From Cyclobacteriaceae bacterium (GTDB lineage: Bacteria > Bacteroidota > Bacteroidia > Cytophagales > Cyclobacteriaceae): a stretch of 64,000 nt of DNA. Below the pieces are notes generated by a model that was not told the DNA's origin, did no database searches, and worked only from the letters and a program-made list of their open reading frames with translations. Below, piece by piece: positions 23,788-63,303 of this stretch. The position numbers and the translations under genes were made by a program. Each line of letters begins with the position of its first letter. Positions within the stretch are counted from its first letter, which is position 1. The DNA lies in NCBI GenBank assembly GCA_965267245.1, contig OZ253939.1, positions 5,840,962 to 5,904,961 of the forward strand, read 5' to 3'.

Positions 23788-23823
23788 TCCAATTATATTG
23801 GACTAAATTCCAGTGATATTGGA
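23788..23823. promoter_or_regulatory. Two operator palindromes in the immunity intergenic region
   Basis: TCCAATtatATTGGA (23788-23802, perfect) and TCCAGTgatATTGGA (23809-23823), 21 bp centre to centre, between the divergent HTH genes. Confidence 0.55.
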
Positions 23824-25055: not shown

Positions 25056-25572
25056 CCTTGGTAAGGTTTACTAAATTGTAATCGTTCACCAAACCAATTG
25101 CGTCTTCCTCTATGTAGTGGAATATAATTGGATGAGTTTGAGCAATACTGTATACTTCATATTGCTCTAACAAATCATAAAATCTATCACGTGTCTCCAG
25201 GGAATCATCCTTCAAAACAAAAAATACGTGAGTAGCATTGCCATCCTTTGAGTATGCCATTTGCGTCAATAATTCTCGCTTCTTTCTCCCAAAAGTTTCA
25301 ATTAGTTGAAATTTAAGGCTATCGATAGATTTGTTAATACTTTCATTTGTACTAGAAACCGTTTTTATAGGGTTACTAACAGATTCCTTCAAAAACTTAG
25401 TGAAGTCGTGTTCAGCACCAACATCTTGAAGGCTCAAGGCATCATTGACATCATTAGTCAATTCCTGCAATAGACCATCTAATGCCATTAGCAAACCAGT
25501 AATTTGTAAGTCACTAGGGCTATCTTTAGATATGATATCTTGAGATTTGTTGACGTTTTTTACACTTGACAT
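25039..25572 (-). CDS. Hypothetical protein, upstream partner of the HEPN-like gene
   Basis: 177-aa ORF that overlaps the downstream gene by 17 nt. No clear motif. Confidence 0.5.
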   Translation of the reverse strand: MSSVKNVNKSQDIISKDSPSDLQITGLLMALDGLLQELTNDVNDALSLQDVGAEHDFTKFLKESVSNPIKTVSSTNESINKSIDSLKFQLIETFGRKKRELLTQMAYSKDGNATHVFFVLKDDSLETRDRFYDLLEQYEVYSIAQTHPIIFHYIEEDAIGLVNDYNLVNLTKDEQAS

Positions 25573-25699: not shown

Positions 25700-25714
25700 T
25701 CCAATGAAATTGGA
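25700..25714. promoter_or_regulatory. Operator palindrome upstream of the 25572-24645 operon
   Basis: TCCAATgaaATTGGA is a perfect palindrome with the same half-sites as the immunity operators. It lies 128 nt upstream of the ATG at 25572. Confidence 0.45.
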
Positions 25715-26063: not shown

Positions 26064-26242
26064 AAAGCTTTGTCATTATTCCTGGACCATGAAGGCCTTT
26101 TGTGTTTTGTAGATAAGACGTATTTCTCCTCAAATTCCGGGCAATAGCTACGTGCAGGAACAATAACCACCCAACCGGTCAAAGTTTTCCCAGACATCTC
26201 ATCATACCAGGTACATTTTGTTTCTAATGGAATTTTATTCAT
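26018..26242 (-). CDS. Hypothetical small protein
   Basis: 74-aa ORF that overlaps the TPR gene stop by 8 nt. Confidence 0.5.
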   Translation of the reverse strand: MNKIPLETKCTWYDEMSGKTLTGWVVIVPARSYCPEFEEKYVLSTKHKRPSWSRNNDKAFWKIVPASKLEICPN

Positions 26243-27449
26243 TCTGTTTCAATGATCTAATCATTCTATTTCTCACCCGTACAAATCTGATAATTGATCT
26301 AAATAGAAGGTACAATATAATTAATAACCCAATACCTACTCCTAGAAGGACAATATTCTGGTTTTCAATGATGTCATTCAGTTGATGAGTTTCCTGCTCC
26401 TGTTTGTAAACCAGAGCAATGTTAGCAGCTTGCGCCATAAACAGTAGTTCACGGGAAGTATTAGCAAAGGCCTCAAGTTCAGATTCGTACTTTTCTATGT
26501 AGGCAGTTCTGTTAATATCATCATTTAATGCATGATAGTTACGGTGCATCAGCTTATAAAGATCTAATGTATGGTTATCCTTATCCACGTGATCAAAAAG
26601 ATCTTTTGCGTTGCTGTATGCAATAGCCGCTTCCTCGTACTTACCTAAATGATGGAGGCATGTGCCCAGATCCTTATAGGAAATAAATTTTTCAGTACCT
26701 GTTTTTATTTCCAGCGCTTTATTGAGGTTTTCTACAGCTTTCTCATAGTCTTCTTCCATCATGTAGCTATGAGCGATATTGTGCCATGCTTTTCCTGCGT
26801 ATTTCTCATATTTAGGGACACTAGTCTGATTGATAATTTCAAAAAAGTACTCTTCTCTAGCCTCTGCATAGAGGCCAGTTTCTACAAGTATAAAGCCTAG
26901 TTTATTGTAAATTTTAGCTTGTCTGGTAAGTTGCTCTTCATCCTTTGCCAGGGCTAGTGCTTCAAAAAAGATTTTGGAGGCTTTCTCAAGTTGTTCCATG
27001 GCTTTATAGTTATTGCCAATGTTATATAATAGTCCTGGTTTATCTTCATCTACAACATACTGAAGCGCATTATTGTAAAAAGTCTCTGCCAGGTCATAAT
27101 TGTTATGAATTTTGAAAATCCTTCCTAAGCACCAGTACAAACGTGACCTTGCCTGATCATAATAGCTGCCCTCCGGGATAAGTTCGAGCGCTTTAAAATA
27201 GTGCTTTACCGATAATTGATAATTTCGTTTAGTGTTGTAAGCATCAGCAATGAGGAAATGACTAAAATAGGCATTATGATTATCCGAATACTCTTTCAGG
27301 GAGCTTTCAGCATAGAAAATTGCGGAATCAGGAGAATTAAAATGCTGTTTAGCTATTTCGTTGCTCGGACTATTAATAGAGTAATTCTCATTGACAGTGG
27401 AGCAGGCATGGAAAAGAATAACAGTTAATATGAACAGAAAGTAGCGCAT
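26235..27449 (-). CDS. TPR-repeat lipoprotein with a C-terminal TM anchor and a short basic tail
   Basis: Signal plus lipobox MRYFLFILTVILFHAC, multiple TPR units (A..Y...AL), then IVLLGVGIGLLIILYLLF and RSIIRFVRVRNRMIRSLKQNE. It is a paralogue of 58014-59246. Confidence 0.8.
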   Translation of the reverse strand: MRYFLFILTVILFHACSTVNENYSINSPSNEIAKQHFNSPDSAIFYAESSLKEYSDNHNAYFSHFLIADAYNTKRNYQLSVKHYFKALELIPEGSYYDQARSRLYWCLGRIFKIHNNYDLAETFYNNALQYVVDEDKPGLLYNIGNNYKAMEQLEKASKIFFEALALAKDEEQLTRQAKIYNKLGFILVETGLYAEAREEYFFEIINQTSVPKYEKYAGKAWHNIAHSYMMEEDYEKAVENLNKALEIKTGTEKFISYKDLGTCLHHLGKYEEAAIAYSNAKDLFDHVDKDNHTLDLYKLMHRNYHALNDDINRTAYIEKYESELEAFANTSRELLFMAQAANIALVYKQEQETHQLNDIIENQNIVLLGVGIGLLIILYLLFRSIIRFVRVRNRMIRSLKQNE

Positions 27450-27508: not shown

Positions 27509-27540
27509 TAAAAAAAAATCAGCCTATTAAGTGACTGATT
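27509..27540 (-). terminator. Candidate attenuator/terminator between the lipopeptide gene and the TPR gene
   Basis: On the minus strand AATCAG-tcacttaatagg-CTGATT is followed by TTTTTTTT. Confidence 0.45.
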
Positions 27541-27574
27541 TTCAAATTGATATTAGCAAATGATAATAAAATGA

Positions 27575-27736
27575 TCAATTACAGCAAGGTTTTGGATGTT
27601 CATCATCGTCATCTTCTGAGGCCGGAGTCTCTAGTTGATAGTCTGCTTCTATTTCATCCATAGGATCAGACGTGGAACATGATCCCAGGCTAAATACGAA
27701 CAATGCAACGGTGGAAATTAAGAATAGCTTTTTCAT
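27575..27736 (-). CDS. Small acidic lipoprotein (53 aa) ending in PCCN
   Basis: Below the ORF-track cutoff. Hand translation gives MKKLFLISTVALFVFSLGSCSTSDPMDEIEADYQLETPASEDDDDEHPKPCCN. It is a paralogue of 59374-59541. Confidence 0.6.
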   Translation of the reverse strand: MKKLFLISTVALFVFSLGSCSTSDPMDEIEADYQLETPASEDDDDEHPKPCCN

Positions 27737-27780: not shown

Positions 27781-27795
27781 TCCAATAAGATTGGA
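27781..27795. promoter_or_regulatory. Operator palindrome upstream of the lipopeptide/TPR operon
   Basis: TCCAATaagATTGGA is a perfect palindrome 45 nt upstream of the ATG at 27736. Confidence 0.45.
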
Positions 27796-27886
27796 AAAAA
27801 GAAACTTAAGAATACGCCGTTGGATTCATTCATTCATGTTCCAATTGGTGTGTGGTTGGCTTTCGGGTGGTGCCGAAAGCCTTTTT

Positions 27887-28012
27887 TTATGCTTTTAGCT
27901 GCTTTTTCTTCTTATTGTACTCGTACAATTGAATACCCATGTAAACAGAGGTGAGTACTGCTGCGGTAGCAGAAGCGTATAGTGCCGCTTTTTGAAGTTT
28001 TTTATCGTCCAT
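27887..28012 (-). CDS. Possible 41-aa single-TM protein
   Basis: Hand translation gives MDDKKLQKAALYASATAAVLTSVYMGIQLYEYNKKKKQLKA. It is followed by the hairpin GGCTTTCGG/CCGAAAGCC. Confidence 0.3.
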   Translation of the reverse strand: MDDKKLQKAALYASATAAVLTSVYMGIQLYEYNKKKKQLKA

Positions 28013-29309: not shown

Positions 29310-31331
29310 TTAAGTTGGGACTATTTCTATTTTCAACCAGCTTAATGCATAGTATGCAGGAGTGCCTACGGCAGCCTCACTAAAATCTAATTGTATTAAT
29401 CCGCTTCCGTCAACAGCCACATCTGCCAACAAAATGTTTTGATCCGGATCGCTCAAATCTGCGCCACCCATATCGTTCCAGGAACATGACCATTGATCCG
29501 TTTGCACACCATCCGTTACTTCTCCTCTACATTGATCTTCATTGGTGGCAGATCGATACCCACCACCTTTTATGTTGAATATCTTACTTGCCCAATCCGT
29601 GTAACCAGACACATCTATAATGATAGTTTCAGGATTTACAGAATAAAAACAGTCTCTAGTTGCTGCTGCTGGAATTGTAGTTACTCCATCGGTAATACTA
29701 CCGTTATATCCCTGACTTGTACTGTCATATGTTCCGTCCCATGCGGTATCTATCTCCATGTCAATTCCAGTTCCACTGCCATCACTGAATGCAGCTAAGT
29801 CACTGATTACTGTCCCGGGACTGTTATCAAGGTTGTCTATATTATTCCAGTTTCCGGATGCATGAGAATACTGTGATCCGAAATCGATAAATATTTCTTC
29901 TTCAGGATCGTTTTGAGTTGATAAACCATCTCCTGAAGCAATGTTACTTGTATAGTTACCTGCAGCGTGAACGAAATGCGCATATTTAGTTTGTCCAGGA
30001 GAGAGAAGACCTGTGAAATTAAATGTAATAGTTCCTGAAGCTGAAATTTCGGTACTATCAGCTAATGAGCCTACTGAAGTACCTGTTTCATCTTCCCCAT
30101 TCATGATTTCAGTTTCGTCAGGAGCAGTAATTGAATCCGTCAATACAACATATACCGTCCCAATGTCCTGGTTGATATCAACACTTGCAATTGCTGAATC
30201 ACCGCCTGATGCGGTATCAATAGGATTACTTAATGTAGCGGCAGTACTGTAATTGACAATGATATCAAAATACACATCCTCATAACCTGAGTGTGTACTA
30301 AATCCAACAGCTCTAATTACAAAAGTATCTCGTCCCTCAGTAGATGGAGAGCCATTTGCTGTCAAAACTCCGGTAGATGAATTAAGGCTCAACCAACTTG
30401 GAAGCCCCCAGCTTGAGAATTCTACATTTGAACCGGGACTATTGGTAAAACTTGGAGTCAATGTGGTAGCGGCCGTACTCACTTCGAATACCTGGTCGCT
30501 GTTACTATAGGTAAATCCTTCAATTGGTATAGCATTGAGTTCCAATACCACTCCATCACCATCCAGATCCGTAAAGGCAGCATCTGAAGCGCTCGTTCTT
30601 AATCCATTTAGAAATCCGGTAATACTTATCCTGGCATCTTCATTTACAGTATGTGCAGCACTAAAATCTATTAACAGTTGATCTACTTCGGAATCAGACA
30701 ATCCTGTATTGTGAAATGTGTAGAAGAAATCACCGGAGATGGTTTGGTAATCTTGGTCAGTAACACTACAATTACCTCCATCCAGGTAAAACAAGTCAAA
30801 GCTGTGATTGGAAAATAAGACACCCAGATCACCTGTAAGAGCAGTGTTTCCTACTTGTTCACCAAGATTTAACTCTACAAGGCTGCTTATATTGATAGAT
30901 GAAATAGCCCCTGAAATAATACCACCAAGGTTAAAGAAGCTTTGGAGGCTTTGAAAGTTGTTGATATTAGATGTGCTAATAGTAAGATCCGGAGAGAAGT
31001 CATCCTCTTTAGTAACTGATATGATGATACCGGTCAACCCTGAATGGTTCCCAATGGCAATAGCCGCATCTTCATTATCAAAAGTCTGACTGACTTTAGT
31101 AGGAGTTGCTGATAATGCTACCTGTTCAGTATCTAAACTTTTCCATTGAACAGTTTTGGTCCCTGAGCCAGTAAGCCACATTTCGATTGTTCCCGAGAAG
31201 CCGGAAGCTGTGGCCAGGTTCTGTAAAACAACTTCTGCTGAAATTTCCTCTGTTATGTACTTTGATACATTTGCCAGGTCTACACCATCCAGCTTTGCAA
31301 TGTTATCGGTATTTACGGTAGTTACTTTCAT
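29310..31331 (-). CDS. Fibre/receptor-binding-like protein with an Ig-like (He_PIG-type) domain
   Basis: 673 aa, Ser/Thr/Gly/Asp-rich. GLPSWLSLNSSTGVLTANGSPSTEGRDTFVIRAVG matches the putative Ig-domain pattern. ATGA-coupled to the upstream gene. Confidence 0.55.
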   Translation of the reverse strand: MKVTTVNTDNIAKLDGVDLANVSKYITEEISAEVVLQNLATASGFSGTIEMWLTGSGTKTVQWKSLDTEQVALSATPTKVSQTFDNEDAAIAIGNHSGLTGIIISVTKEDDFSPDLTISTSNINNFQSLQSFFNLGGIISGAISSINISSLVELNLGEQVGNTALTGDLGVLFSNHSFDLFYLDGGNCSVTDQDYQTISGDFFYTFHNTGLSDSEVDQLLIDFSAAHTVNEDARISITGFLNGLRTSASDAAFTDLDGDGVVLELNAIPIEGFTYSNSDQVFEVSTAATTLTPSFTNSPGSNVEFSSWGLPSWLSLNSSTGVLTANGSPSTEGRDTFVIRAVGFSTHSGYEDVYFDIIVNYSTAATLSNPIDTASGGDSAIASVDINQDIGTVYVVLTDSITAPDETEIMNGEDETGTSVGSLADSTEISASGTITFNFTGLLSPGQTKYAHFVHAAGNYTSNIASGDGLSTQNDPEEEIFIDFGSQYSHASGNWNNIDNLDNSPGTVISDLAAFSDGSGTGIDMEIDTAWDGTYDSTSQGYNGSITDGVTTIPAAATRDCFYSVNPETIIIDVSGYTDWASKIFNIKGGGYRSATNEDQCRGEVTDGVQTDQWSCSWNDMGGADLSDPDQNILLADVAVDGSGLIQLDFSEAAVGTPAYYALSWLKIEIVPT

Positions 31332-33532
31332 GCTGCTTCAACTTCTACCTCTGGTTTTGGCCATGTGTAAGTACCCGATCCGTAACGTCCAGTATTGCTG
31401 GCCACAAAGTTTTCGACATTCACAATTGAGTCAACAATGTGTGTCCAGGTTTGCTCACCTCTGAAGTCTCCGGCTTTGGTACTCTCCATTACCAGTATGA
31501 ATCCAATATTTGGGTATTGGTGCATAAAGGATTCCATTTCACTGGCTCTTATTCTGAAGTTGTTTATCAGATCGATGAAAACAAATTTGAATTTACCAGT
31601 ATCCAGGGCTTTTCTCAGTTCATTTAAGCTTCGGAAAGCGTCAAAGAACATACCAGGGTTACCATCCACCTTCATGTCTTTAATTAGCTTTTTGGTGGCC
31701 TGACCTATTCCCTGGTCCGCCAACACATAAAGCACATCACCAAACCCACTTATATAGTCGGCAAACTGAAAGCTGAATGAGGTTTTACCGTTTTTTGGTT
31801 TTCCATAAATGATCAATTTTAAATTGGTACCAGGATCTTGCATGAACTCACCCCATACACCATTAAAGGGCAATGTTTCAAAGTTTGTGTTCATGATATC
31901 GTCAGCGGTTTTGAACCCCATTGATGAATTTGTTTCTGCTTGAGAATCAGTTTCGTCTTGAGTGATTGAGTCGAGAAAGCCCCACCTTTCATTACTTTCT
32001 TCCTCTATGCCATTAAGTGTAGAGGTTTTTTTTGTAGGGGCTTTTTTAGGCCGTTTTACCGTTGGTCTGTCCTTCTTCTTTTTAGAATTTGCAAGCGATC
32101 TTTTGAGATATTTAGGTACTCCTTTGCTATCTGGTTGCAGAATAAAGTCTGCTGCTTCCTGAGCTTTACTGCTCGCTCTAAAAAAGAATTTATTATCCTT
32201 TTTCATGATGGCAAGTAGATTACTTTTCCAATGTTCCAGATATGCAGCACTGTTATTGATTGTATGATAGAGTATTCCGCTCTCACCACAAAGGAAAGTT
32301 GCCCCAAGCTCCGCTATCAATTCTTCAAAGGCATAATTTTTAGTTTTCATTCCTCCTGGCTTAAGACGGTCTAACCGTTTTTTATGTCCAGTACTGTGTA
32401 TGTACTCATGAAAAAGTGTACAGTAGTATTTTGGCAAACTTTCAAAAGATTCAGGCACAGGCATATTGACCTCATCCAATCCAGGTATATAGAATGCTTC
32501 AGGTTTTTTATGAGAAAATTTTGGTTTCGGAGTAGGGTAGGAGCGAATAATATTTTCAGCGGCCTCTATCTTTTCAGTCTGTTTCTTCTTCGGTTTCTTT
32601 TTAAGTTTAAAATCGATACCCTCAATATCCTCACCATTAAAAACCTTGTAGTAGCGCAATACCGGAAACTCGTCAAGGTTTTCGCACACATTAATTCCGT
32701 TTTCTGTTACCGGACCTTTAGCACATTGTGCAAAATACTTGAAGTACTGTTTGTCAGTTATTCTTTTTCCATCGAGTTTATAAATCATCTGAAAGTATGT
32801 GACGAAATAGCCTTTGGCACCTTCCTTCACTTTTCCTCCTTTTTGCTTCACCTGGTTGAATGTAAGAAAGTAGGGATTGTCCCACTCTTTTTGTCGCTGA
32901 AAAGGAATTAGAAAGTTTAACAGAAATGAGTTTATACCTCTATAAGGTTTTTTGCTTGCGAAATTTGTGGCTGGTAACCCATAGGATTCCATAGATTTCC
33001 ATGGTTTTCGCCAAACAAGATCTTTACTGTTCTCAATCATGTCTGTTACCATATCTGTAATGATTTGGTAAACATCATCATTAGCGACAGCCCCTAAAGT
33101 GTTCATGGCTGTTTCTTCACAATAGCATTCTATCCCATCAAGTGTTGTTACTCGATTTTTATAAGCAGTTTTACCATCTCGTGATATCTTAAATCCGGAA
33201 GATATAAATGTCTTCTTCTGACTAGTGTTGAGTTTTCTGGAGAATTGAATAGAGGCTTTGTTTGGTGTTATGCTTAGTTTTTTGAACGGGTCTGCAATTG
33301 CTTTATTTATGCATTTTTTAGTTTTAACGCTCAGCTTGATCTTAGCCTGTCCAATCTTATTTTTCCTCATGGCAGAAATAGTCTTATTCAGTTGATCCAA
33401 AACAACCTGATGACAATAACTTTTGACTGGATCTAAAGCGACAAGATTAGACTTTATGCTCTCAATACTGCCAATTTGAACGGTTTTACCATCCAGATTC
33501 CTAATTGTTCTATAGAGTCTATTTTCATCCAT
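31328..33532 (-). CDS. ArdC-like fusion protein: ssDNA-binding N-domain, zincin metalloprotease domain and C-terminal RecA/KaiC-like P-loop ATPase
   Basis: WRKPW...KKPYRGINSFLL...YFLTFNQVKQKGGKVKEG (DUF1738/ArdC-N), HEYIHSTGH...FEELIAELGATFLC (ArdC metalloprotease), a basic linker, Walker A GKPKNGKTS and Walker B FVFIDL. Confidence 0.78.
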   Translation of the reverse strand: MDENRLYRTIRNLDGKTVQIGSIESIKSNLVALDPVKSYCHQVVLDQLNKTISAMRKNKIGQAKIKLSVKTKKCINKAIADPFKKLSITPNKASIQFSRKLNTSQKKTFISSGFKISRDGKTAYKNRVTTLDGIECYCEETAMNTLGAVANDDVYQIITDMVTDMIENSKDLVWRKPWKSMESYGLPATNFASKKPYRGINSFLLNFLIPFQRQKEWDNPYFLTFNQVKQKGGKVKEGAKGYFVTYFQMIYKLDGKRITDKQYFKYFAQCAKGPVTENGINVCENLDEFPVLRYYKVFNGEDIEGIDFKLKKKPKKKQTEKIEAAENIIRSYPTPKPKFSHKKPEAFYIPGLDEVNMPVPESFESLPKYYCTLFHEYIHSTGHKKRLDRLKPGGMKTKNYAFEELIAELGATFLCGESGILYHTINNSAAYLEHWKSNLLAIMKKDNKFFFRASSKAQEAADFILQPDSKGVPKYLKRSLANSKKKKDRPTVKRPKKAPTKKTSTLNGIEEESNERWGFLDSITQDETDSQAETNSSMGFKTADDIMNTNFETLPFNGVWGEFMQDPGTNLKLIIYGKPKNGKTSFSFQFADYISGFGDVLYVLADQGIGQATKKLIKDMKVDGNPGMFFDAFRSLNELRKALDTGKFKFVFIDLINNFRIRASEMESFMHQYPNIGFILVMESTKAGDFRGEQTWTHIVDSIVNVENFVASNTGRYGSGTYTWPKPEVEVEAA

Positions 33533-35302: not shown

Positions 35303-36001
35303 TTAGATCATTCGACCGAAAGCGCCGTTTGGAATTATTCCTCTTTGTCGAGCAGGTATTTTACTCGCTATTCGCTTTAACCCTGAAGAAGTTCCTACAA
35401 TCCTCTTAAATTCGTCGTAAGTGACAATCGTTTTGGGTATCCCTGCGGCTTTTAGTGCTTTCTCAGTTCCAGGACCAAAAATCCCATCAGCACCACCAGA
35501 AGATCTTATAAAAGCACCGGCAGTACCACCTCTTTTAAGCAAGGCATTTTGCAAATCCTTTACAAACTGGCCTCTGGTTCCTTTTTTGAGAGGAAATCCA
35601 GCTGGGGTCATTTTATTTGCAGTTGTAAAAGTTGTAGATGGAAGACTTGATGTTACCTTACCTGTTAGACTTTTGAATGTTGCTTCGTCGATTGACAAAG
35701 GCCACCTAGCCAAGCTAACAGCCTTATTTGTACCAGGCCCCCAAATACCATCCGCACCTCCAGTATCACGAATGTATTTAGCAATAGTGCCTCCCTTTGA
35801 CAGAAGTACGTTTTGAAGCATTTTAACATTTTCGCCTCTACTACCTTGACTCAATGGAAAAGAGTCTCCTTTAGTGGAGATATCCTCGATTTCAATAGGG
35901 TCAATTGTGGATTTACCCTTTTGCTTGCTTACAACTTTATAAATCAGTACTCCCGTTCCTAGAGCGGCCGCACCTACAATTATTTTACCCTTGGTTTTCA
36001 T
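35303..36001 (-). CDS. Membrane-anchored protein with two PG_binding_1 peptidoglycan-binding domains
   Basis: N-terminal TM, then two copies of G.RG..VK.LQN.LL..GG......GGADGI.GPGT.KA. Confidence 0.8.
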   Translation of the reverse strand: MKTKGKIIVGAAALGTGVLIYKVVSKQKGKSTIDPIEIEDISTKGDSFPLSQGSRGENVKMLQNVLLSKGGTIAKYIRDTGGADGIWGPGTNKAVSLARWPLSIDEATFKSLTGKVTSSLPSTTFTTANKMTPAGFPLKKGTRGQFVKDLQNALLKRGGTAGAFIRSSGGADGIFGPGTEKALKAAGIPKTIVTYDEFKRIVGTSSGLKRIASKIPARQRGIIPNGAFGRMI

Positions 36002-51365: not shown

Positions 51366-51501
51366 CTAAATTATCTCATTCAAAATCCTCAAAAAAATGG
51401 TGTGTGGTGGTTTAAATAAGGTTTCTTATGAGTAATTGAAGAGATCTTCTTCCTTTTCTAATTTGATAAAATCTTCAATATAAATGGGGTTCGATTTGTG
51501 G

Positions 51502-53022
51502 TCAGTACGGACTGCCAAAGACTAACAAGCCACCACTTTCGGTGGCTTTTTTACTTATATGGCGTGTATAGGCCAATATTGGGTTTATTTGATGGGTTCG
51601 ATATTGGCTATTTTTCTTATCGTAAGTAAATCCCTGTGGAAACACTATTTTCTGAATGACTTGTCTATGTGAAAACGTGGCTGATTGCCATAGATCAGCT
51701 ATTTCTGAGGTAAATCTGATAGCGTAATTGACGAACTTTGATGGGTTTGATTTTTTTATTCTGATAGTCTCCAGTTCCTTCTCAATTTCTACTCTTTCAC
51801 TCATCAGATTTGACTGATGGGAAGTATAAGTTTCTTCCCCTAATCCGGAGTATATAAATTTATCTTCTAATACTTTCAATTTGGAATTGATCTTACCAAT
51901 CTGCTGCCTCAGGATTGAAGCCCTCTTTATGTCTTCTGTTGCTAACCTGGTGAATGTTTCTGATAATATTGATTCAAATGCAGGTACCAGTTCAATATCC
52001 AGTGAAAGCTCGTTTAGCAATTCCAAAAATCCGGCATGAGCTTTATTTGCGGAAATATTCTCTTTGCAGCCTTTACCATTGCACTTGTAATATGCGATAG
52101 GGTTCTTCTTAATGTAATACTTATCCTGGTCCCAGATAGATTGCTTCTTCTTCACAAAGTATCCTGTCAATGGTCTATTACATTTTGAGCACTCCAATGA
52201 TCTCTTTAGAGGGAATGAATCTTCTGTGTCTACAATATTTATGGACTCATTCCCAGAAAGAATCTCCTGTACCTTTAGAAATAATTCATTACTTACAATT
52301 GCTGGGTGAGTTCCTTTTACCGGTTTATCTATCATGGAAGTGGCTACCCATCCTGCATAAATTGGGTTTCTCAATCTTTTGGACCATGTCTGTACACTGT
52401 CCTTTATTCCCAGTGTGCTCATTTTGTTCCTGATGTCAGTAATGCCATTGCGCATAGATGCCATTTTAAAGGCTCGTTCAATATGGTAGCCTTCTGGTGT
52501 GATAGACACCTTGCCAGTGTTTTTATCTTTTAGGTAACCAATAGGGAAGGGGAAGATCCAAATTCCCTGGTTTAGTTTTGATTTCATTCCAGCTGTAACT
52601 ACCAATGATCTGCGATCATTATCTACTTCTGGCATAGCCAGGTAAAAAGCCAGCATCATCTTCTGCTCAGGTATTGAAGGATCTATAGGTTGTTCAATAG
52701 CCTGAACCTGTATTCCGAGTTTGCGGAGGGTTTTGATCATGTGGAATGATTCTTCCATGTTACGGCTGAATCTATCCCACCGGTGTACTAATAGAGTGTC
52801 TATCTGCTTACTGTATTTTTTACAGTAAGCTAACAGCCTAGTAAACTCAGGGCGCTTAAACGTTTTTGCACTATAATCTTCCTGAAATAGTCTATCTATT
52901 GTAATCCTGTTTATATCACAATATTGCCTAAGTCTAGTCTCCTGATGTGGTAGACTTGTGCCTCTTTCAGCTTGATCATCTGTGCTTACGCGTGTGTATA
53001 GTATGGCCCTGGTTAATCTCAT
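51502..53022 (-). CDS. Large serine recombinase (integrase of element 2)
   Basis: From the ATG at 53020-53022: MRLTRAILYTRVSTDDQ (catalytic Ser), a recombinase domain and a zinc ribbon CSKCNR...YYKCNGKGC. The last 6 codons cross the att core. Confidence 0.9.
   Translation of the reverse strand: MRLTRAILYTRVSTDDQAERGTSLPHQETRLRQYCDINRITIDRLFQEDYSAKTFKRPEFTRLLAYCKKYSKQIDTLLVHRWDRFSRNMEESFHMIKTLRKLGIQVQAIEQPIDPSIPEQKMMLAFYLAMPEVDNDRRSLVVTAGMKSKLNQGIWIFPFPIGYLKDKNTGKVSITPEGYHIERAFKMASMRNGITDIRNKMSTLGIKDSVQTWSKRLRNPIYAGWVATSMIDKPVKGTHPAIVSNELFLKVQEILSGNESINIVDTEDSFPLKRSLECSKCNRPLTGYFVKKKQSIWDQDKYYIKKNPIAYYKCNGKGCKENISANKAHAGFLELLNELSLDIELVPAFESILSETFTRLATEDIKRASILRQQIGKINSKLKVLEDKFIYSGLGEETYTSHQSNLMSERVEIEKELETIRIKKSNPSKFVNYAIRFTSEIADLWQSATFSHRQVIQKIVFPQGFTYDKKNSQYRTHQINPILAYTRHISKKATESGGLLVFGSPY
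51509..51520. repeat. att core copy 2 (GGACTGCCAAAG): junction of element 1 and element 2
   Basis: Exact repeat of 12027-12038. It is preceded by GGGGTTCGATT (51486-51496), which matches the tRNA-Glu T-arm. Confidence 0.6.
51527..51552 (+). terminator. Second element-borne + strand terminator directly after the att core
   Basis: AAGCCACC-actttc-GGTGGCTT followed by TTTT. It sits in the same position relative to the core as 12046-12083. Confidence 0.6.
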
Positions 53023-56354: not shown

Positions 56355-56779
56355 ACTCTGATCGTGGTTTGAATACCGCCTTCCTGCCCATTTTGGCGTA
56401 CCTCTTTCTTTCCTCTTCTTGTCTGGCTGGGCTTAGATCCGAATAAAGGATGACTGTTTCCATATTTTAAATATTTAAAGCAAATGCAATAGATTTTGGT
56501 ATCATTAGTAACTGGCTCTATGGTGTACTTGCTGGCTAGCTCAGCAATGAGTACTTCACGTGAATACCCGGTGACAATAGTGGCCAGGGACTTTGAGATA
56601 TCCCTGACCTTAAGATTGCGCCGCTCGATAATTTTAGCGTGTCCCAGGAATGCACCGTGTAGGTATATATCATAGCCGTGATCCACTTCATACTTTTCTG
56701 GTAGACGAATGTCTACATGCATGAAGCTGGAGCAATACAGCCTGTTATTATCATTTCCGGTGAAGTGGAGTGATTTCAT
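56351..56779 (-). CDS. Hypothetical protein (C-terminal 35 or so codons doubtful)
   Basis: 142-aa ORF. Its tail overlaps the alternative-frame ORF 56218-56463. Confidence 0.45.
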   Translation of the reverse strand: MKSLHFTGNDNNRLYCSSFMHVDIRLPEKYEVDHGYDIYLHGAFLGHAKIIERRNLKVRDISKSLATIVTGYSREVLIAELASKYTIEPVTNDTKIYCICFKYLKYGNSHPLFGSKPSQTRRGKKEVRQNGQEGGIQTTIRV

Positions 56780-57219
56780 TCTGCCGGTCTTAGTCTTCTG
56801 AATCCTAAAACCCTGCCTTTATCATAACCAGTGATGCATACCTTGTTTGCCTGGTTTCCTCCCAGTATGTTTATGTGACGGCCGTCTTCATCATAGTTGA
56901 TGAAAATACCCACATGTCCCTTCCAGCTACTGGGTGAGCTTCTCCAGAGCACTACTATATCTCCAGGGATAGGACGGTCTGTTTCTCTGCCTACCTGCAG
57001 CCATGACCGGGCATTGAGCTCTCCGGATCTTTCTGCACACTGCTGCTGAGCTACCCAGTTCATAAATGCACTGCACCAGGCAGTCTCATCATCTTTTACC
57101 CAGCTGTGGCCTATCTCTTTGAAATAGTTTAAGATGGTGGCATTGTGTGCTCCACCTACGGTTTCTTCTACACCGTACTGGGATAGGGCCGTGTTTAGGA
57201 TTTGATCATTCAATATCAT
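56776..57219 (-). CDS. NlpC/P60-CHAP-type cell-wall hydrolase (TIGR02594-like)
   Basis: NATILNYFKEIGHSWVKDDETAWCSAFMNWV (catalytic Cys context) and WKGHVGIF (His). Confidence 0.72.
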   Translation of the reverse strand: MILNDQILNTALSQYGVEETVGGAHNATILNYFKEIGHSWVKDDETAWCSAFMNWVAQQQCAERSGELNARSWLQVGRETDRPIPGDIVVLWRSSPSSWKGHVGIFINYDEDGRHINILGGNQANKVCITGYDKGRVLGFRRLRPAE

Positions 57220-57476
57220 TACTCAACTACAATTAAGTCTTCAATTGACGTACAAAGAATTTGTGATATTTTAACAAGTTCATCCAAGGAAGGTTGTGTG
57301 TTGTTTAGGAGAATATTAGACACTCTTCTTGGGTGACCAACTGAGGCTCTTATCTTTTCTTCAATAGCCTTTCTTGAAGCTAATGGATCATCACTAGAGC
57401 TACTCTGCTTAAAAATAACTTTCAATATGTTATTGCTTTTAAGTGTCTTTGTTGAGTTATTAATAGTTGTTTCCAT
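57219..57476 (-). CDS. HTH protein (Cro-like) of element 2
   Basis: RRVSNILLNNTQPSLDELVKISQILCTSIEDLI is XRE-like. It is divergent from the 57601 gene. Confidence 0.55.
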   Translation of the reverse strand: METTINNSTKTLKSNNILKVIFKQSSSSDDPLASRKAIEEKIRASVGHPRRVSNILLNNTQPSLDELVKISQILCTSIEDLIVVE

Positions 57477-57566: not shown

Positions 57567-57600
57567 TATTATTGTAGTTGATTAATTGAACGGTAAGGAA

Positions 57601-58017
57601 ATGCCTAAAACAAAATCCTATGATGATCTTGTAGGGGATGGTCTACAGCTAAGAATTTTATTTGATGAGATTGGAGTAAATCAAAAGAGATTTGCGGAAA
57701 AAATTGGGGTAAGTGGAAACACACTTACTAATTGGATAAATAGTCCAGTAATTAGTACTGATAATCTCATTAAAATTGAAAAAGGCCTAGAAGTAGACAT
57801 CAGTCATAAGTTTACAAAGCTCAAGCAAGCTAAAAATAGACAGGTTCATCCCAATGTCCATTATTCTGCCTCTGGTGAAGAGGTGAAAGAGATTACTCTT
57901 GATGAGTATATTGAGTATCAAAGTCTAAAGAAGGAAGTTGAGCAGCTTAAGTACATCGTAAAGATGCAGGAGCAGTTTATTGCTGTAGTAAAACAGCAAT
58001 ACAATATTGAGGATTAA
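57601..58017 (+). CDS. XRE-family HTH repressor (CI-like) of element 2
   Basis: NQKRFAEKIGVSGNTLTNWINS is an HTH, followed by a C-terminal coiled coil as in 23898-24308. The start was set at the ATG at 57601 (the track uses TTG at 57586). Confidence 0.68.
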   Translation: MPKTKSYDDLVGDGLQLRILFDEIGVNQKRFAEKIGVSGNTLTNWINSPVISTDNLIKIEKGLEVDISHKFTKLKQAKNRQVHPNVHYSASGEEVKEITLDEYIEYQSLKKEVEQLKYIVKMQEQFIAVVKQQYNIED

Positions 58018-59246
58018 TTTAGGTATTGATTTACTTTTGGCACATGCCTATAGGCTTCTTTTACAGCTGCCACCTTTCGTTTCTCCCTCATACCATTGAT
58101 ATACACAAATAGTATACCGATTAAAGCAAGGCTAAAAACTATAAGCCCACTCCACTGGATGATTTTCTCATTTCTCATTTCCCTGATCTGTAACTCATAG
58201 TAGTTTCTGATTAAACTATCTATGGCTGCTGCCTGGCTTTCACTGCTTAAGGTTTCTCTATACTGATTATAAATCTTGTTTTCTTCCTGGTGTCTGATAT
58301 CATATTCATCTCTGAGATCAGCAAGCTTCATATCCCGAAATAGTATTTCCATTTTATGAAAGAGTTCTACAGACGCATAATCACGAGGCACATTATCGTA
58401 CAGTGATTCTGCCAATAAGTAATACTTATAGGATGAATCATACCGGTTTGTGCTATGGTAAGCTTCTCCCAGGTCCATGTAAGTGATGAACTTGTCTGAT
58501 TCCTTTTCTTTTATGGATAACGATTGTTTATAAAAATCAATGGCACTATCCGGAAGGTTTTGTTTGTATAAACCAAATCCAATATTGTGATAAGCTCTAC
58601 CTGCGTATCTGTTGTACTCCGGGTTATCTATTGCATTAATGATTTCGAAAAGGTACTCCCTGGCTTCATTGTATTTACCTGCTCTATTTAAAGCTATCCC
58701 AATCCAATTATATGCTTTGGCCTGTTTATTTACCTGGTTGTTTTCTTTAGCAGCATCAAGTCCTTCCAAGTACTTTTGTACCGCCTCATCTTCTCTACTG
58801 CTGGCCAGATAAACATTCCCCAGGTTAATAAGTATAGATGCTTTCTGATCATCTGATGCATAGTCTAGCGCAATCTGGTTTAGTTTTTCAGCTTCATCCC
58901 AATTCTGGGCCAATTTATTAAGCCTGGCAAGATTCTTATACAAACTAGATATGACAGGATGATACTTTTCCTCTTTTGGAATGTGATTTATGGACTCCAG
59001 GTAATGGAACACAGCTTTATCATACTGTGACTTTCTGGTAAATGCATAGGCCAATAGCTGGTGGCTGTAATAAAGGTTATCCGGATCAGTGTATGACTTT
59101 AAACTCTCTGTTGCGTAATAAATGGAACTATCAGGTAATTTATATGAGTCCTGGGCCTTCTGATTCAATAATGAATATTCAGGATTGGAAGTGTCCCTAC
59201 ATCCGTAGAGAAGTAAGATTGCGAATACGACCGACCAGACGCGCAT
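58014..59246 (-). CDS. TPR-repeat lipoprotein with a C-terminal TM anchor (paralogue of 26235-27449)
   Basis: From the ATG at 59244-59246: MRVWSVVFAILLLYGC (lipobox), TPR units, IIQWSGLIVFSLALIGILFVYI (TM) and a basic tail. Colinear similarity to the element 1 protein, for example LPDSSIYYATESLKSY versus SPDSAIFYAESSLKEY. Confidence 0.8.
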   Translation of the reverse strand: MRVWSVVFAILLLYGCRDTSNPEYSLLNQKAQDSYKLPDSSIYYATESLKSYTDPDNLYYSHQLLAYAFTRKSQYDKAVFHYLESINHIPKEEKYHPVISSLYKNLARLNKLAQNWDEAEKLNQIALDYASDDQKASILINLGNVYLASSREDEAVQKYLEGLDAAKENNQVNKQAKAYNWIGIALNRAGKYNEAREYLFEIINAIDNPEYNRYAGRAYHNIGFGLYKQNLPDSAIDFYKQSLSIKEKESDKFITYMDLGEAYHSTNRYDSSYKYYLLAESLYDNVPRDYASVELFHKMEILFRDMKLADLRDEYDIRHQEENKIYNQYRETLSSESQAAAIDSLIRNYYELQIREMRNEKIIQWSGLIVFSLALIGILFVYINGMREKRKVAAVKEAYRHVPKVNQYLN

Positions 59247-59373
59247 ATTGATGTGATTAATAGGGTTTTTGTAAAGAGTTAACAAGTATAATACAAACCA
59301 TATACAAAAACAAACCACCATGAATCACAACTCATTGAAACATAGCGGTTTTATTATCATATGCTAATACCAA

Positions 59374-59541
59374 TTAATTACAACATGGCTGGGGTGGATC
59401 TTCGTCATCATCACCATCATCGCCCGCAGGTTGTTCTATAATTAATGAATTTTCTATCTCATCATACTCAGTATCCGGAGTGCATGATGCGAAAAAGAAT
59501 GAAGTAAAAAATACTGCTAGTAATACTCTTAAGATTTTCAT
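59374..59541 (-). CDS. Small acidic lipoprotein (55 aa) ending in PCCN
   Basis: Hand translation gives MKILRVLLAVFFTSFFFASCTPDTEYDEIENSLIIEQPAGDDGDDDEDPPQPCCN. It lies 127 nt upstream of the TPR gene, matching the 125-nt spacing in element 1. Confidence 0.6.
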   Translation of the reverse strand: MKILRVLLAVFFTSFFFASCTPDTEYDEIENSLIIEQPAGDDGDDDEDPPQPCCN

Positions 59542-59695: not shown

Positions 59696-60448
59696 ATGCG
59701 CAGATACATATACTCAATTCTTCAACCCTCTGGTAAGGGTAAGGATATCAGCTACTACTTTGATATTTTTTTAATGATATTGATAATCCTCAGCGTTATT
59801 GATATCATCCTTGAGTCTGAGAAATTTTTGAGAGATCAGTTCCATCAAATATTCCGAGCTTTTGAGATTTTTAGTGTGACAATATTCACAATTGAATACA
59901 TATTAAGGCTGTGGACAATAGTAGAAAGCAAAAAATACCATAAACCACTGAAAGGAAGATTGAAGTGGTTCTTTTCTCCTATGGCATTAGTGGATTTATT
60001 GGCAATCATGCCATTTTATTTGCCATTTGTTGGGATCGATTTGAGGTTTTTAAGAGCTCTTCGACTGTTTAGGATATTCAGGATATTGAAAATGGCCAGG
60101 TATTCGAATGCATTTGACCTTATCAGGAATGTATTGAAGGAGAAAAAAGAAGAATTACTAGTTACCATGGCCTTCATCATGATAATACTGGTGATAGTCT
60201 CTACTATGATGTATTATGTAGAAAGGGATGTGCAACCAGATGTATTTTCAAGTATATCTGATGCTATCTGGTGGGGAGTGGTAACCCTTACTACTGTGGG
60301 ATACGGTGATGCATATCCTGTAACGGGATTAGGAAAATTGCTAGGTGGATGTATCACATTATTGGGAATAGGATTAATTGCTTTGCCTTCTGGAATAATT
60401 GCTTCTGGGTATACTGAGCAGATAATGAGAATGAAAAATAAGAATTAA
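59696..60448 (+). CDS. Voltage-gated-type 6-TM potassium channel
   Basis: S4-like RFLRALRLFRIFRILKMAR (Arg every third residue) and the selectivity filter TLTTVGYGD. Confidence 0.88.
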   Translation: MRRYIYSILQPSGKGKDISYYFDIFLMILIILSVIDIILESEKFLRDQFHQIFRAFEIFSVTIFTIEYILRLWTIVESKKYHKPLKGRLKWFFSPMALVDLLAIMPFYLPFVGIDLRFLRALRLFRIFRILKMARYSNAFDLIRNVLKEKKEELLVTMAFIMIILVIVSTMMYYVERDVQPDVFSSISDAIWWGVVTLTTVGYGDAYPVTGLGKLLGGCITLLGIGLIALPSGIIASGYTEQIMRMKNKN

Positions 60449-60909
60449 TGAAAAACATGAGAAACCAATTTAATGATTTTGAAGTGTATAAGCTTTACCT
60501 GGATTGGGATAGAAGTAAGCTAGATAATACAAAAAAAGTCTTTTCTTCAAACGTGACAAGAATAGAGATAATTCTTGGGTTAATGTTTGTTTTATCAGTC
60601 ACATCAATAAGGGAAATAGACAATAAAAACTGGTTCCAAATTTTCGGTATAGTATTGTCTTTTGTTTCTCCTATATGGCTAATGATTGATAATTTAATTC
60701 ACCAGAATGGAGCCATGAAGGAGTTTATAGAAGGTTCTGAGGCTCTTGATATAGAATTAAATCCAAATAATCACAAGAAAGGAGTTACAATTCCTCCATT
60801 AGATTTTAATGGATATGACATTCTTCAAAAAGTTAGAAAAAGGAATACGGTTTTTATGTGTATTCAAGTGTTTTGTGCAGCTCTTGGATTAATCTTAATA
60901 ATCATCTAG
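60448..60909 (+). CDS. Three-TM membrane protein co-transcribed with the channel
   Basis: 153-aa ORF whose start overlaps the channel stop (TAATG). It has three hydrophobic helices. Confidence 0.5.
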   Translation: MKNMRNQFNDFEVYKLYLDWDRSKLDNTKKVFSSNVTRIEIILGLMFVLSVTSIREIDNKNWFQIFGIVLSFVSPIWLMIDNLIHQNGAMKEFIEGSEALDIELNPNNHKKGVTIPPLDFNGYDILQKVRKRNTVFMCIQVFCAALGLILIII

Positions 60910-60924
60910 GTGTTAATATCTAAT

Positions 60925-63303
60925 TCATACCTTATAAGCTGTCCCTTTCTGGTTTTCCAAACCTCTATCGGTAATTTCAAAACTTAGTTTGCTCAGGATG
61001 ATCGTGGCATCCCTATTCTGTATTTTCTTGGATGCTATTACTTTTTCGATCTCCAGGTTATCAAAACTAGATTCAAATTTTAGGAGTCGGGTATTTTTAA
61101 GTTTTGCATTAACTACCTCATGTTCTGCATCCTGGATATTTTCACTCTGGAAATTTCTCAGGGCATATCCTGGTAGCTTAGTGGATTCTGCATTGTAATT
61201 ATGTGGAGCTGCTAAATAGTATGTGTAATCATTGTTTGCCTGGTTAGTGTCTGGTTGCAATCCATGATAGTATGCAATTTTAGGCTCGTGTTTTTCAGAA
61301 ACTATAGGTGTGTAGTATACAGATGTAACTCTGATCAGAATAGTTTTGACTGTTACGTCTGCCAAATATGCCTCATCCAAGTAGATTTCTCGTTGATTTT
61401 CTAAGTGAAAGCCTATCCATTTATTTGGATACTGCATTGCATCTGATTCTTCATTTAGCTCAGGGACCAAAAAAACAGACATAGATGAATCCAAGAGCCC
61501 AGAAAACTCATCAAACTCAATCTTCACTTTAAATGCACCATAAATATCAGATCCCCCGGATGAAGACACCGTAAACTTTGTAAGTGTACGGATTTCATAC
61601 CTATCAAACTTGACTGGCTGTAACTTATTCAGAATTAATTCACGTATGTCATCTATTTTGGAGTATTTAAACTTCTGGTAGGGCTGTGTATAATACTGTA
61701 GCAACAATGAGCCATTATTAGAATCCGCTGTGGCAGACCCTGAGCCATTTGAAATAGTCTCCCCATCTATGAATGCACCATCAGAAAAAACTTCTAAGGT
61801 ACTGCCATCTATTCCAAATATTTCTGCTTTACTATTACTTTCTTCACCCACTAAAACAAGATGGACAGAACCTATCGTCCCGGATGCGCCTCCATCCGTA
61901 GTGAATGCTTCTCCTTCCTTAAAATTGTATCTATTTGCCTCGTGTCTAAACAATATACATACACCTGCACTATAGGATGAAACATAACCTTTGGCACCAC
62001 TTTCGTCACCTGTAAGAATGTCTGCAGTGGTAATGGATCCACTTACTCCAGTAAGTATTAGATGAGGTAAGATTTCACCGGAAGTACTGCTTATATCTAT
62101 TTCGGAAGGATTGGTTTTTTGAACCTGGTAATAGGCGTTATCCCTTAATAAAAAAACATAATCACCAATTTCTGGGCTTACTATGTTTGCTGTTGCATCA
62201 TTCAGATCATCAAACTCACCTTTATAAGTTCCCTGTAATTCTTCCTCTACATCATCAAATAGTTCATCATCCAGGTTCCATATGAGTTTAAGTTCTTTTA
62301 CATCTATCCTGCTGCCTCCTTCAAACCTGAAATTACTACCTATTTCAAGAGAAGTCTTATTCAGTAGTCTGTTTATACTGTTGATTGATAGTGTTTGGTT
62401 AACAGGATCAATACTGATATCACTGCATGTGACTTTAGCATAGTCACTCACGAGCTCATAAAATGTAAGTCCCTCTGGCATGAAATAAGCCACATCAATT
62501 TTATTGGAAATGTGACTAAAATTATATTCTCTGGTAGAATACGCTCTGGCTAGTCTTCTGCTTTTTCTTCCGGATCCGCCACCAGAACCTCTGTACCTTC
62601 TAGGTGTGTATGCAGAATTGGAATTTGAATTGTTAGCAAACGCTTCCCTGGGTCTGGTTCTTGTAAAAATATTTGGGATGAATTTATCTGGAATAATAAT
62701 GAGCTGTTTGAACCTGTTAGCAGCAGAACTGTAATTGTCAATCAGCTTATATCCAAATTGCTCACAGCAAATCTTGATCAAATATTGAATCCCAAAGCAT
62801 GGGCAAATATTTCCACCTTTATCATTTACATAAAATGGTATATCATCTTTGATTTGCATCCTGGGAAATACCATTTCTGGGTAATTCTCATTATTCCAAT
62901 CTGCGGTGAACTCATCAAATGTGCCATCAATGATGTCTAATTGTTTCGTGATCACCTGAGTGAGATCAAAATCTTTTGATTTATATAATTCCGAATTTAT
63001 GACACTAAATGAGCCAATGAAATATTCATCGTCTATATCATCAAGATTGAAAACACCACTTCTCCATATCATGCCATCAATAGAAATGAAGAACCCGTCA
63101 TACTCTTTAAGCTGGTTTTTAGGATTTGAAGGATCATGAGCGAAACCGAACAGTGATTCATTTCCTTCAATTGGAATTTTGAATTGCCACGTGTATTCGT
63201 TGTTTATTAGTTCAAAATCCAAAAAATCATGCTCTACCTCATAATTTATCACTGACTTTTGAGGTAGCGAAATATCTGTACTGTATCTACGCAATCCTAT
63301 CAT
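60925..63303 (-). CDS. Large structural-type protein of element 2 (fibre/baseplate-like)
   Basis: 792-aa ORF that is beta-rich and has a Gly/Arg-rich internal segment RRYRGSGGGSGRKSRRLARAY. No family recognised. The call rests on position and size. Confidence 0.45.
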   Translation of the reverse strand: MIGLRRYSTDISLPQKSVINYEVEHDFLDFELINNEYTWQFKIPIEGNESLFGFAHDPSNPKNQLKEYDGFFISIDGMIWRSGVFNLDDIDDEYFIGSFSVINSELYKSKDFDLTQVITKQLDIIDGTFDEFTADWNNENYPEMVFPRMQIKDDIPFYVNDKGGNICPCFGIQYLIKICCEQFGYKLIDNYSSAANRFKQLIIIPDKFIPNIFTRTRPREAFANNSNSNSAYTPRRYRGSGGGSGRKSRRLARAYSTREYNFSHISNKIDVAYFMPEGLTFYELVSDYAKVTCSDISIDPVNQTLSINSINRLLNKTSLEIGSNFRFEGGSRIDVKELKLIWNLDDELFDDVEEELQGTYKGEFDDLNDATANIVSPEIGDYVFLLRDNAYYQVQKTNPSEIDISSTSGEILPHLILTGVSGSITTADILTGDESGAKGYVSSYSAGVCILFRHEANRYNFKEGEAFTTDGGASGTIGSVHLVLVGEESNSKAEIFGIDGSTLEVFSDGAFIDGETISNGSGSATADSNNGSLLLQYYTQPYQKFKYSKIDDIRELILNKLQPVKFDRYEIRTLTKFTVSSSGGSDIYGAFKVKIEFDEFSGLLDSSMSVFLVPELNEESDAMQYPNKWIGFHLENQREIYLDEAYLADVTVKTILIRVTSVYYTPIVSEKHEPKIAYYHGLQPDTNQANNDYTYYLAAPHNYNAESTKLPGYALRNFQSENIQDAEHEVVNAKLKNTRLLKFESSFDNLEIEKVIASKKIQNRDATIILSKLSFEITDRGLENQKGTAYKV

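Follow-up and report, generated by a model that had tools for sequence, protein, structure and literature searches.

Why two prophage-like elements in one bacterial chromosome should both carry, at their immunity genes, a gene for a very small acidic lipopeptide followed by a gene for a membrane-bound tetratricopeptide-repeat (TPR) protein is the question raised by the DNA analysed here. This DNA, referred to below as the window, is a stretch of 64,000 nucleotides (nt) of contig OZ253939.1 (assembly GCA_965267245.1, positions 5,840,962 to 5,904,961) from a Cyclobacteriaceae bacterium. Both elements are inserted in tandem at tRNA-Glu(ttc) (11961-12038 and 51483-51520), and the proteins common to both amount to three pairs only: the integrases, one stretch of 83 amino acids (aa) and the TPR proteins. 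The best explanation of the observations reported below is that temperate elements of Cytophagia-type Bacteroidota carry, within their immunity module, a conserved two-gene cassette. Such a pair is not covered by any family in Pfam, NCBIfam, PHROG or PADLOC, and our literature searches returned no description of one. The temperate phages of Bacteroidota are poorly understood, and the self-cleaving domain by which induction is explained in model phages is missing from the repressors encountered here. The cassette is of interest as an unannotated conserved pair located at the switch in many elements, and it joins two things known only separately, a small peptide with a TPR receptor and a prophage envelope lipoprotein.

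The peptide gene of element 2 occupies 59374-59541 on the minus strand and is supported by its open reading frame (ORF) and sequence, by agreement with the lipobox pattern and by the family alignment. It encodes a 55-aa precursor, MKILRVLLAVFFTSFFFASC followed directly by TPDTEYDEIENSLIIEQPAGDDGDDDEDPPQPCCN, from which a mature peptide of 36 aa is predicted, lipidated on Cys, with a net charge of -13 and PQPCCN at its end. The mechanical ORF begins at a TTG (59547) two codons before the ATG at 59541; the latter was taken as the start because it matches the MK(K) start of all relatives. The corresponding gene of element 1 (27575-27736, minus strand; identified from ORF, sequence and family alignment) encodes a 53-aa precursor with the C-terminal end ...DDDDEHPKPCCN, and its predicted mature form has 34 aa, a net charge of -11 and a terminal PKPCCN. 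Pairwise alignment of the two peptides gives 42% identity and bears out the statement of a first-pass annotation of this DNA that they share a lipobox Cys, a DEIE motif, an acidic stretch and a P-x-P-C-C-N end. They are the only CCN-ending ORFs in all six frames of the window, and the codons of the Cys-Cys pair differ between them (TGT TGT versus TGC TGT). Neither peptide matches a family in Pfam, PADLOC or NCBIfam.

The second gene of the cassette encodes a TPR protein with a C-terminal transmembrane helix (TPR-TM). In element 2 it lies at 58014-59246 on the minus strand, and the assignment draws on Pfam TPR matches, an AlphaFold2 (AF2) model, fold matches, topology and family membership. The 410-aa product begins with a lipoprotein signal (LLLYGC) and continues with an eight-repeat TPR solenoid, a long helix, a membrane helix (residues 368-386) and a basic tail. 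The longest ORF begins at 59321; every homologue, however, begins at the signal peptide (MR...), and 59246 is therefore the supported start. The spacing from the peptide gene is exactly 127 nt, so that this distance, the TPR start and the coordinates and length of the 55-aa ORF all stand as first annotated; in element 1 the spacing is 125 nt. The element-1 protein (26235-27449, minus strand; 404 aa) has the same architecture, as judged from its ORF, Pfam matches, alignment and topology. The two TPR proteins align colinearly up to the C-terminal membrane helix, with 37% identity over 303 aa (E = 2e-59), in agreement with their earlier description as colinear homologues.

Pfam recognizes TPR repeats alone in TPR-TM, with no helix-turn-helix (HTH) and no kinase domain. 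Among 26 aligned members, Cys 16 is conserved in at least 90%, the strict lipobox pattern is present in 18, and a strong C-terminal hydrophobic helix occurs in 25. The tail beyond this helix is 14-39 residues long and not conserved in sequence, and in nearly all of the 26 it carries a net charge of +1 to +7. By the positive-inside rule, the TPR part is expected outside the cytoplasm, with the N-terminus out and the C-terminus in. The AF2 model computed from the family alignment (predicted local distance difference test score 92.9) consists of about eight TPR-like repeats and, beyond them, a helix of 64 residues in which the membrane segment is contained. Its best fold matches, with a target-normalized TM-score of about 0.76, are designed consensus eight-repeat TPR superhelices and the TPR domain of LGN/Pins, solved with long extended peptides in its channel. 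Residues conserved in the A helices of the solenoid include Y59, N105, N141, K177, H220, N221 and D258. Taken with the lipoprotein signals of the peptides, these features make it very probable that both products of the cassette act outside the cytoplasm, as predicted.

Word-indexed protein searches with a single TPR protein or peptide gave almost no matches, and the family surfaced only in an exhaustive profile search, which returned about 35 clusters (at 50% identity) of relatives of about 400 aa that match the full profile in one stretch. No relatives were found in scans of viral contigs, in scans of metagenomes or among 50,697 phage GenBank records. NCBIfam gave only sub-threshold generic TPR matches, FimS among them, and PADLOC gave one generic TPR match. 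The gene context was read at further loci (L001, L002, L003, L005-L010, L012, L015 and L016; the contigs L004, L011 and L017 duplicate L003, L010 and L016, respectively). Since L001 is cut upstream, co-occurrence was scored at 13 loci with upstream DNA, that is, 11 further loci and the two window copies, and 12 full-length peptides were available, L008 showing the peptide C-terminus only. An ORF for an acidic lipoprotein of 53-60 aa precedes the TPR gene by 32-145 nt at all 13 loci. This co-occurrence supports the proposal of the first-pass annotation that the pair is a functional unit, and that peptide and TPR protein form a real conserved unit is, in our judgement, hardly open to doubt.

All 12 full-length peptides conform to the lipobox pattern, and their mature parts have 32-40 residues and a net charge of -8 to -14. 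Five parts recur in this order: the lipobox Cys; the motif D-x-(F/Y/M)-(D/E)-E-(I/V/L); a short segment that varies but includes hydrophobic positions; (P/Q)-x-(S/T)-(D/E), which leads into an acidic run; and a Pro ahead of small residues. Conservation is lowest at the C-terminus. The closest outside peptide to the element-1 copy, that of L009 (where the TPR protein is 50% identical to the element-1 protein), ends in ...HPRPGGN, and ends seen elsewhere include ...RPGGN, ...KPGSNTQSGG, ...VPGQN and ...PPPPPPSGG, as well as SGG, VGG, AGG and GQN. The P-x-P-C-C-N end, noted earlier as identical in the two window copies, is therefore no hallmark of the module: the Cys-Cys pair is confined to the two co-resident copies and absent from the other members, and only the Pro and the small residues are general. 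The ratio of nonsynonymous (dN) to synonymous (dS) substitution rates was not computable between the two window copies, dS being saturated; for the mature peptides of element 1 and L009, dN is 0.29 and dS 1.23, a dN/dS of about 0.24 over 33 codons, which is in keeping with a conserved unit.

The cassette is closely linked to the repressor gene and in every case occupies the repressor side of the immunity switch. In element 2 a cI-like HTH_3 repressor with a C-terminal coiled coil (57586-58017, plus strand; Pfam match) diverges from a Cro-like HTH_26 gene (57219-57476, minus strand; domain match). Of the map position first suggested for the pair, between the immunity region and spike or structural genes, the immunity region was thus borne out; the spike label for 60925-63303 was not confirmed, and this 792-aa ORF has no family match. 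Repressor and TPR genes converge, with an overlap of 4 nt at their 3' ends. In element 1 the cI-like HTH_3 repressor (23898-24308, plus strand) and the Cro-like HTH_26 gene (23380-23607, minus strand) were likewise recognized by domain matches, and TPR and HTH genes are separated by four small genes. The element-1 repressor shares 41-45% identity with the repressors encoded convergently in L009 and L010. At 11 of the 13 loci the 3' end of the TPR gene meets or overlaps a convergent HTH gene whose product has a coiled coil at its C-terminus, with overlaps of 4-26 nt in several of them; by sequence, the HTH proteins form at least four groups. No S24 peptidase domain was found among the domain matches of the repressors of the two elements.

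Two kinds of DNA site accompany the cassette. At nearly all loci the peptide gene is separated from the TPR gene by a region with a 12-bp palindrome, TATCA-NN-TG(A/C)TA, to which ATA is usually appended. A motif scan found only two copies in the window: one at 59355-59366 (TATCA-NN-TGCTA), 8 nt past the stop codon of the element-2 peptide gene and conserved at other loci, and one at 27554-27565 (TATCA-TT-TGCTA in the minus-strand reading) past the stop of the element-1 gene. Elsewhere it occurs at 1203 in L002, 5974 in L003, 2085 in L006, 267 in L007, 132 in L008, 4888 in L010 and about 325 in L016. It is placed either before the terminator or 15-35 nt ahead of the TPR start. Because the repressors vary between loci and the palindrome does not, it is more likely to be bound by a conserved host factor. 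Identification as the Bacteroidetes LexA box was rejected, the published motifs being GGA-N5-TCC and CTAA-N5-TTAG, and so was identification as a cI/cro operator, neither switch region containing a copy.

Terminators follow the peptide gene. An intrinsic terminator is predicted between the element-1 peptide and TPR genes (27514-27543, minus strand) and is conserved in L009; most loci have a clear one in this position, and element 1 has another before the peptide gene. In element 2 the same place is taken by a terminator-like hairpin followed by a U-rich run (59312-59351, minus strand; z = -1.7, weak alone). The peptide gene is thus predicted to be an autonomous transcription unit flanked by terminators. 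The second kind of site is the operator of the element-1 switch, TCCAAT-N3-ATTGGA, of which motif searches found two switch copies starting at 23788 and 23809 (TCCAATTATATTGGA and TCCAGTGATATTGGA, together spanning 23788-23823). A perfect copy with the same flank (CTAAA) recurs at 27781-27795, 45-59 nt upstream of the peptide ATG, and a third perfect copy at 25700-25714 lies upstream of the small-gene operon (24645-25572, minus strand) that follows the TPR gene. Element 1 has three perfect copies of a palindrome with 12 specified bases, all within the regulatory region. Sharing of the operator with the peptide promoter region was also seen at L009 (13-nt exact match) and L010 (12-nt exact match), each with its own motif.

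The next-best relatives of the TPR protein are Bacteroidota TPR sensors fused to kinase, AraC, SpoIIE phosphatase or cyclase outputs. One LytS-type kinase, P0066, matches the TPR-TM protein of the neighbouring gene with 35% identity over 401 aa, from the signal peptide through the membrane helix. Its gene directly adjoins a complete trio of peptide, TPR-TM and HTH genes at L012, a non-phage chromosomal region. The gap upstream of the kinase gene (L012 2300-3700) contains two identical 69-aa ORFs and short tandem repeats. L005 is a second non-phage instance, where the cassette adjoins the gene for a 187-aa acidic lipoprotein and lies beside a TPR kinase with only generic similarity (E = 0.004). 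Bacteroidota TPR sensor kinases such as P0066 and FimS of Porphyromonas resemble TPR-TM in having a signal peptide, a TPR solenoid, a juxtamembrane helix and a single membrane helix. They differ in their dimerization/phosphoacceptor and ATPase domains, whereas TPR-TM ends 14-39 residues past the membrane helix. TPR-TM is also coupled to a lipopeptide gene. A general pairing of TPR sensor kinases with small acidic lipoproteins was considered and rejected, since P0165, a generic TPR kinase of the LytS type, has no such neighbouring gene. Given this homology to the sensor parts of signalling proteins and the missing output domain, the phage TPR-TM looks like a sensor module without an output.

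These observations can be combined, tentatively, into an envelope ligand-receptor pair that is wired to the prophage immunity switch and protects the lysogen. By the usual sequence rules, the mini-ORF would be translated, exported by the lipoprotein pathway and cut at the lipobox Cys, giving a strongly acidic, probably unstructured, membrane-anchored lipopeptide of 32-40 residues. Acidic residues at positions +2 to +6 after the Cys form the lipoprotein export signal of Bacteroidetes (PMC5080379), which was scored here as a polar or Lys residue with at least two acidic residues after it at about +2 to +6. The acidic residues just past the Cys of the cassette peptides resemble this signal, so that a location at the outer membrane or the cell surface is possible; the resemblance is clear in L006 (VEDSY), L007 (VNDEF), L010 (EGDFDD) and L012 (MQEDP), and weak in the window copies (TPDTE and STSDP). 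Sequence and model together suggest that the TPR protein is exported as well, with its eight-repeat solenoid in the periplasm, its C-terminal helix tethering it to the inner membrane, its basic tail inside and, in most members, an additional lipid at the N-terminus. By analogy with TPR solenoids of the LGN and kinesin-light-chain types, which clamp acidic peptides and serve as the model here, the solenoid may clamp the extended peptide through the D-x-hydrophobic-(D/E)-E-(I/V/L) motif and the acidic run. We hold such direct binding of peptide and TPR protein to be somewhat favoured. Element-specific recognition by way of the variable middle of the peptide, suggested in the first-pass annotation, is conceivable.

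The proposed wiring of the cassette to the switch is partly visible in the DNA: the TPR gene ends against or overlaps the repressor gene, the switch operator recurs upstream of the peptide gene in element-1-type loci, and the TPR gene has its own conserved palindrome. The complex would have no cytoplasmic output of its own. In the envelope of the lysogen it may act as a protective accessory, most likely by superinfection exclusion or by blocking an envelope step that an incoming phage needs; as a specific role, exclusion or protection is possible, although we think it doubtful. It fits a place within the lysogeny module, the retention of repressor and cassette where the prophage has apparently been lost, and the precedent of known prophage lipoproteins, namely Ltp of Streptococcus thermophilus TP-J34, Llp of T5 and Cor of phi80/N15, which are products of lysogeny modules that exclude superinfecting phage. 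These resemble the cassette in having a lipoprotein signal, in being encoded as an autonomous unit within or beside the lysogeny module and in acting at the envelope. They are, however, single folded proteins, whereas the cassette specifies a probably unstructured acidic lipopeptide and a TPR-TM partner, and beyond generic TPR matches no sequence or domain similarity between them was seen in PHROGs, PADLOC, Pfam or NCBIfam. A similar logic is found in envelope sensing of the RcsF-IgaA type, in which a small outer-membrane lipoprotein with a flexible linker reports to a periplasmic partner anchored in the inner membrane; it has no homology to the cassette, which is phage-borne and has no evident downstream phosphorelay. 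If the cassette is protective, it represents a new exclusion or defence module.

Several observations weigh against an envelope ligand-receptor pair with a protective role. No homology to known exclusion or defence proteins was found in PADLOC, PHROGs, Pfam or NCBIfam. Sharing of the switch operator with the region upstream of the peptide gene was not seen in element 2. No global charge complementarity between peptide and TPR domain was found, the predicted periplasmic TPR domains being acidic to neutral themselves, with net charges from -19 to +8. Linkage to repressors of several families, kept in two non-phage contexts (L005 and L012), could equally mean a regulatory role.

The main rival to the envelope-protection reading starts from this last point and holds that the cassette provides sensory input to the lysis-lysogeny switch. 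TPR-TM would sense the lipopeptide, either its own or that of neighbours displayed on surfaces or vesicles, or another envelope cue, and would influence the repressor through binding of its basic tail to the repressor coiled coil, through regulated proteolysis or through transcriptional interference between the overlapping convergent genes. That the trio of peptide, TPR-TM and convergent HTH/coiled-coil genes is kept despite at least four HTH groups, and even outside phages, speaks in its favour, as do the overlapping 3' ends of TPR and repressor genes, the homology of TPR-TM to a true transmembrane sensor in P0066 and the presence of the switch operator at the predicted peptide promoter. It would also suit repressors without an S24 peptidase domain, for which another induction route is needed. 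On the other hand, TPR-TM has no output domain and only a short, unconserved cytoplasmic tail; the peptide is predicted to be lipid-anchored rather than a diffusible Sec-type propeptide, and four genes separate the TPR and HTH genes of element 1. We allow sensory input a minor, though appreciable, chance; were it correct, the cassette would be the first extracytoplasmic peptide-receptor input to a phage switch. The systems that come to mind here are RRNPP/arbitrium systems (AimR-AimP, Rap-Phr and PlcR-PapR), which likewise place a small peptide gene next to a TPR receptor gene at the lysis-lysogeny switch of temperate phages; in the fold search with TPR-TM, Rap structures rank 36-50. However, these systems are from Firmicutes, their receptors are cytoplasmic and contain their own HTH or phosphatase domain, and their peptides have a Sec-type leader and are cut to 5-10 aa and reimported by Opp. 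The Bacteroidota cassette has instead a TPR protein predicted to be exported and membrane-anchored, an HTH protein encoded by a separate convergent gene, and a lipobox peptide with a predicted lipid-anchored product of 32-40 aa. Membership in RRNPP/arbitrium was therefore rejected, the cassette having neither a cytoplasmic HTH-TPR receptor nor a Sec-type propeptide. A diderm counterpart of arbitrium might still be envisaged, in which lysogens would use their periplasmic TPR-TM to read the lipid-anchored peptide displayed on surfaces or vesicles, either their own or that of neighbours, and the signal would feed the adjacent repressor through the tail or convergent transcription, setting lysis-lysogeny or kin recognition between co-resident elements. 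We regard this as distinctly unlikely; if it were true, the CCN ends of the co-resident copies would mark host-specific or inter-element cross-talk.

The resemblance to sensor kinases allows another explanation, in which TPR-TM is a decoy in host signalling: a kinase-less copy of the sensor would titrate the ligand of a kinase or form inactive heterodimers with it, the lipopeptide would be the ligand or its mimic, and an envelope or surface response would be reprogrammed. It is in line with the homology to P0066 over the entire sensor and membrane helix, with the adjacency of the two genes at L012, with the position of the module next to another TPR kinase and the 187-aa acidic lipoprotein at L005, and with the fact that the nearest non-family relatives are TPR-sensor signalling proteins. 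The L005 kinase, however, is only generically similar, the generic kinase P0165 has no small lipoprotein gene alongside, and no kinase of the P0066 type was identified in the window; we consider a decoy unlikely. Spanin-like lysis, in which a small outer-membrane lipoprotein and a partner anchored in the inner membrane bridge and fuse the two membranes, must also be weighed. The lambda Rz/Rz1 and T1 gp11 spanins share with the cassette a tiny lipoprotein of the outer-membrane type and a periplasmic inner-membrane partner with a long helix. The 32-40-aa mature part and Pro-containing C-terminus of the lipopeptide, the potential of the Cys residues of the window copies to form disulfides, and the combination in TPR-TM of an N-terminal lipobox with a C-terminal membrane helix, which is the topology of a unimolecular spanin such as T1 gp11, all agree with such a function. 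Yet an i-spanin has an N-terminal membrane helix and a periplasmic coiled coil, whereas TPR-TM has a C-terminal helix and a 300-aa TPR solenoid. Two-component spanin genes belong to a lysis cassette with holin and endolysin, whereas the present genes, which differ in order and in the membrane orientation of their products, lie beside the repressor, and endolysin-like genes lie elsewhere (35303-36001 in element 1; upstream of ArdC in L010). The cassette further has its own terminators and regulatory sites, occurs in two non-phage chromosomal contexts and encodes highly acidic peptides, and a spanin function is very unlikely. Scarcely credible is a secreted bioactive peptide, that is, a bacteriocin or the precursor of a ribosomally synthesized and post-translationally modified peptide with a C-terminal Cys-Cys, for which the TPR protein would be the immunity or processing factor. 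The gene is small, the N-terminus leader-like and the Cys-Cys present in the two window copies; but all 12 peptides have a canonical lipoprotein signal, the Cys-Cys is missing from every other member, no modification or transport genes were found nearby, and the mature net charge of about -12 is unlike that of known bacteriocins.

The elements themselves offer an experimental handle, with two diverged copies of the cassette in one strain and one element apparently excising. A 12-bp core, GGACTGCCAAAG, closes the tRNA gene at 12027-12038 and recurs at 51509-51520 together with a partial copy of the tRNA 3' end; the only Rfam matches in the window are two tRNAs. Large serine-integrase ORFs (11995-13569 and 51502-53022) are 35% identical, and both end inside the cores. 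Element 1 extends over 12039-51520, about 39.5 kb. Contigs and reads of the source sample span its circular junction, in which the sequence up to 51520 runs into 12039-12068 and 12027 is preceded by 51491-51508. The depth of element 1 in this sample is about twice that of the chromosome (64-82 versus 38), and that of element 2 equals it. From the circular junction and the doubled depth, element 1 appears to be excising or replicating in the source culture. A variant in which the tRNA is followed by non-element DNA is also present in the source sample. RNA runs under the same organism label do not contain this genome. Among the contigs of the source sample, one form of element 1 skips 3013 bp, 17491 being joined to 20505, and contig breaks and raised depth occur at 16.7-21.3 kb, which suggests that related element-1 variants exist within the same sample.

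Several neighbouring genes deserve mention. Directly after the Cro-like gene, the early operon of element 2 contains a gene for a 147-aa CHAP peptidoglycan hydrolase (56776-57219, minus strand). Among PHROGs it comes closest to the lysozyme end of baseplate hub proteins, and the location is unusual for a lysin. The peptide gene and the 792-aa late gene of element 2 are separated by a segment, 59696-60909, that on the opposite (plus) strand encodes an Ion_trans K+ channel of the voltage-gated type (250 aa) and an overlapping 153-aa membrane protein; this gene pair is a moron-like insertion, and it has no match among defence models. In element-1-type loci the cassette is preceded, in conserved synteny, by a gene for a protein of 734-755 aa that combines ArdC-N, zincin (MPTase-PolyVal) and P-loop parts (31328-33532 in the window, 452-2677 in L009 and 900-3167 in L010). 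This gene is followed, just before the peptide gene, by one for a conserved 41-aa membrane protein with a single helix (about 27885-28010 in the window and 2691-2816 in L009).

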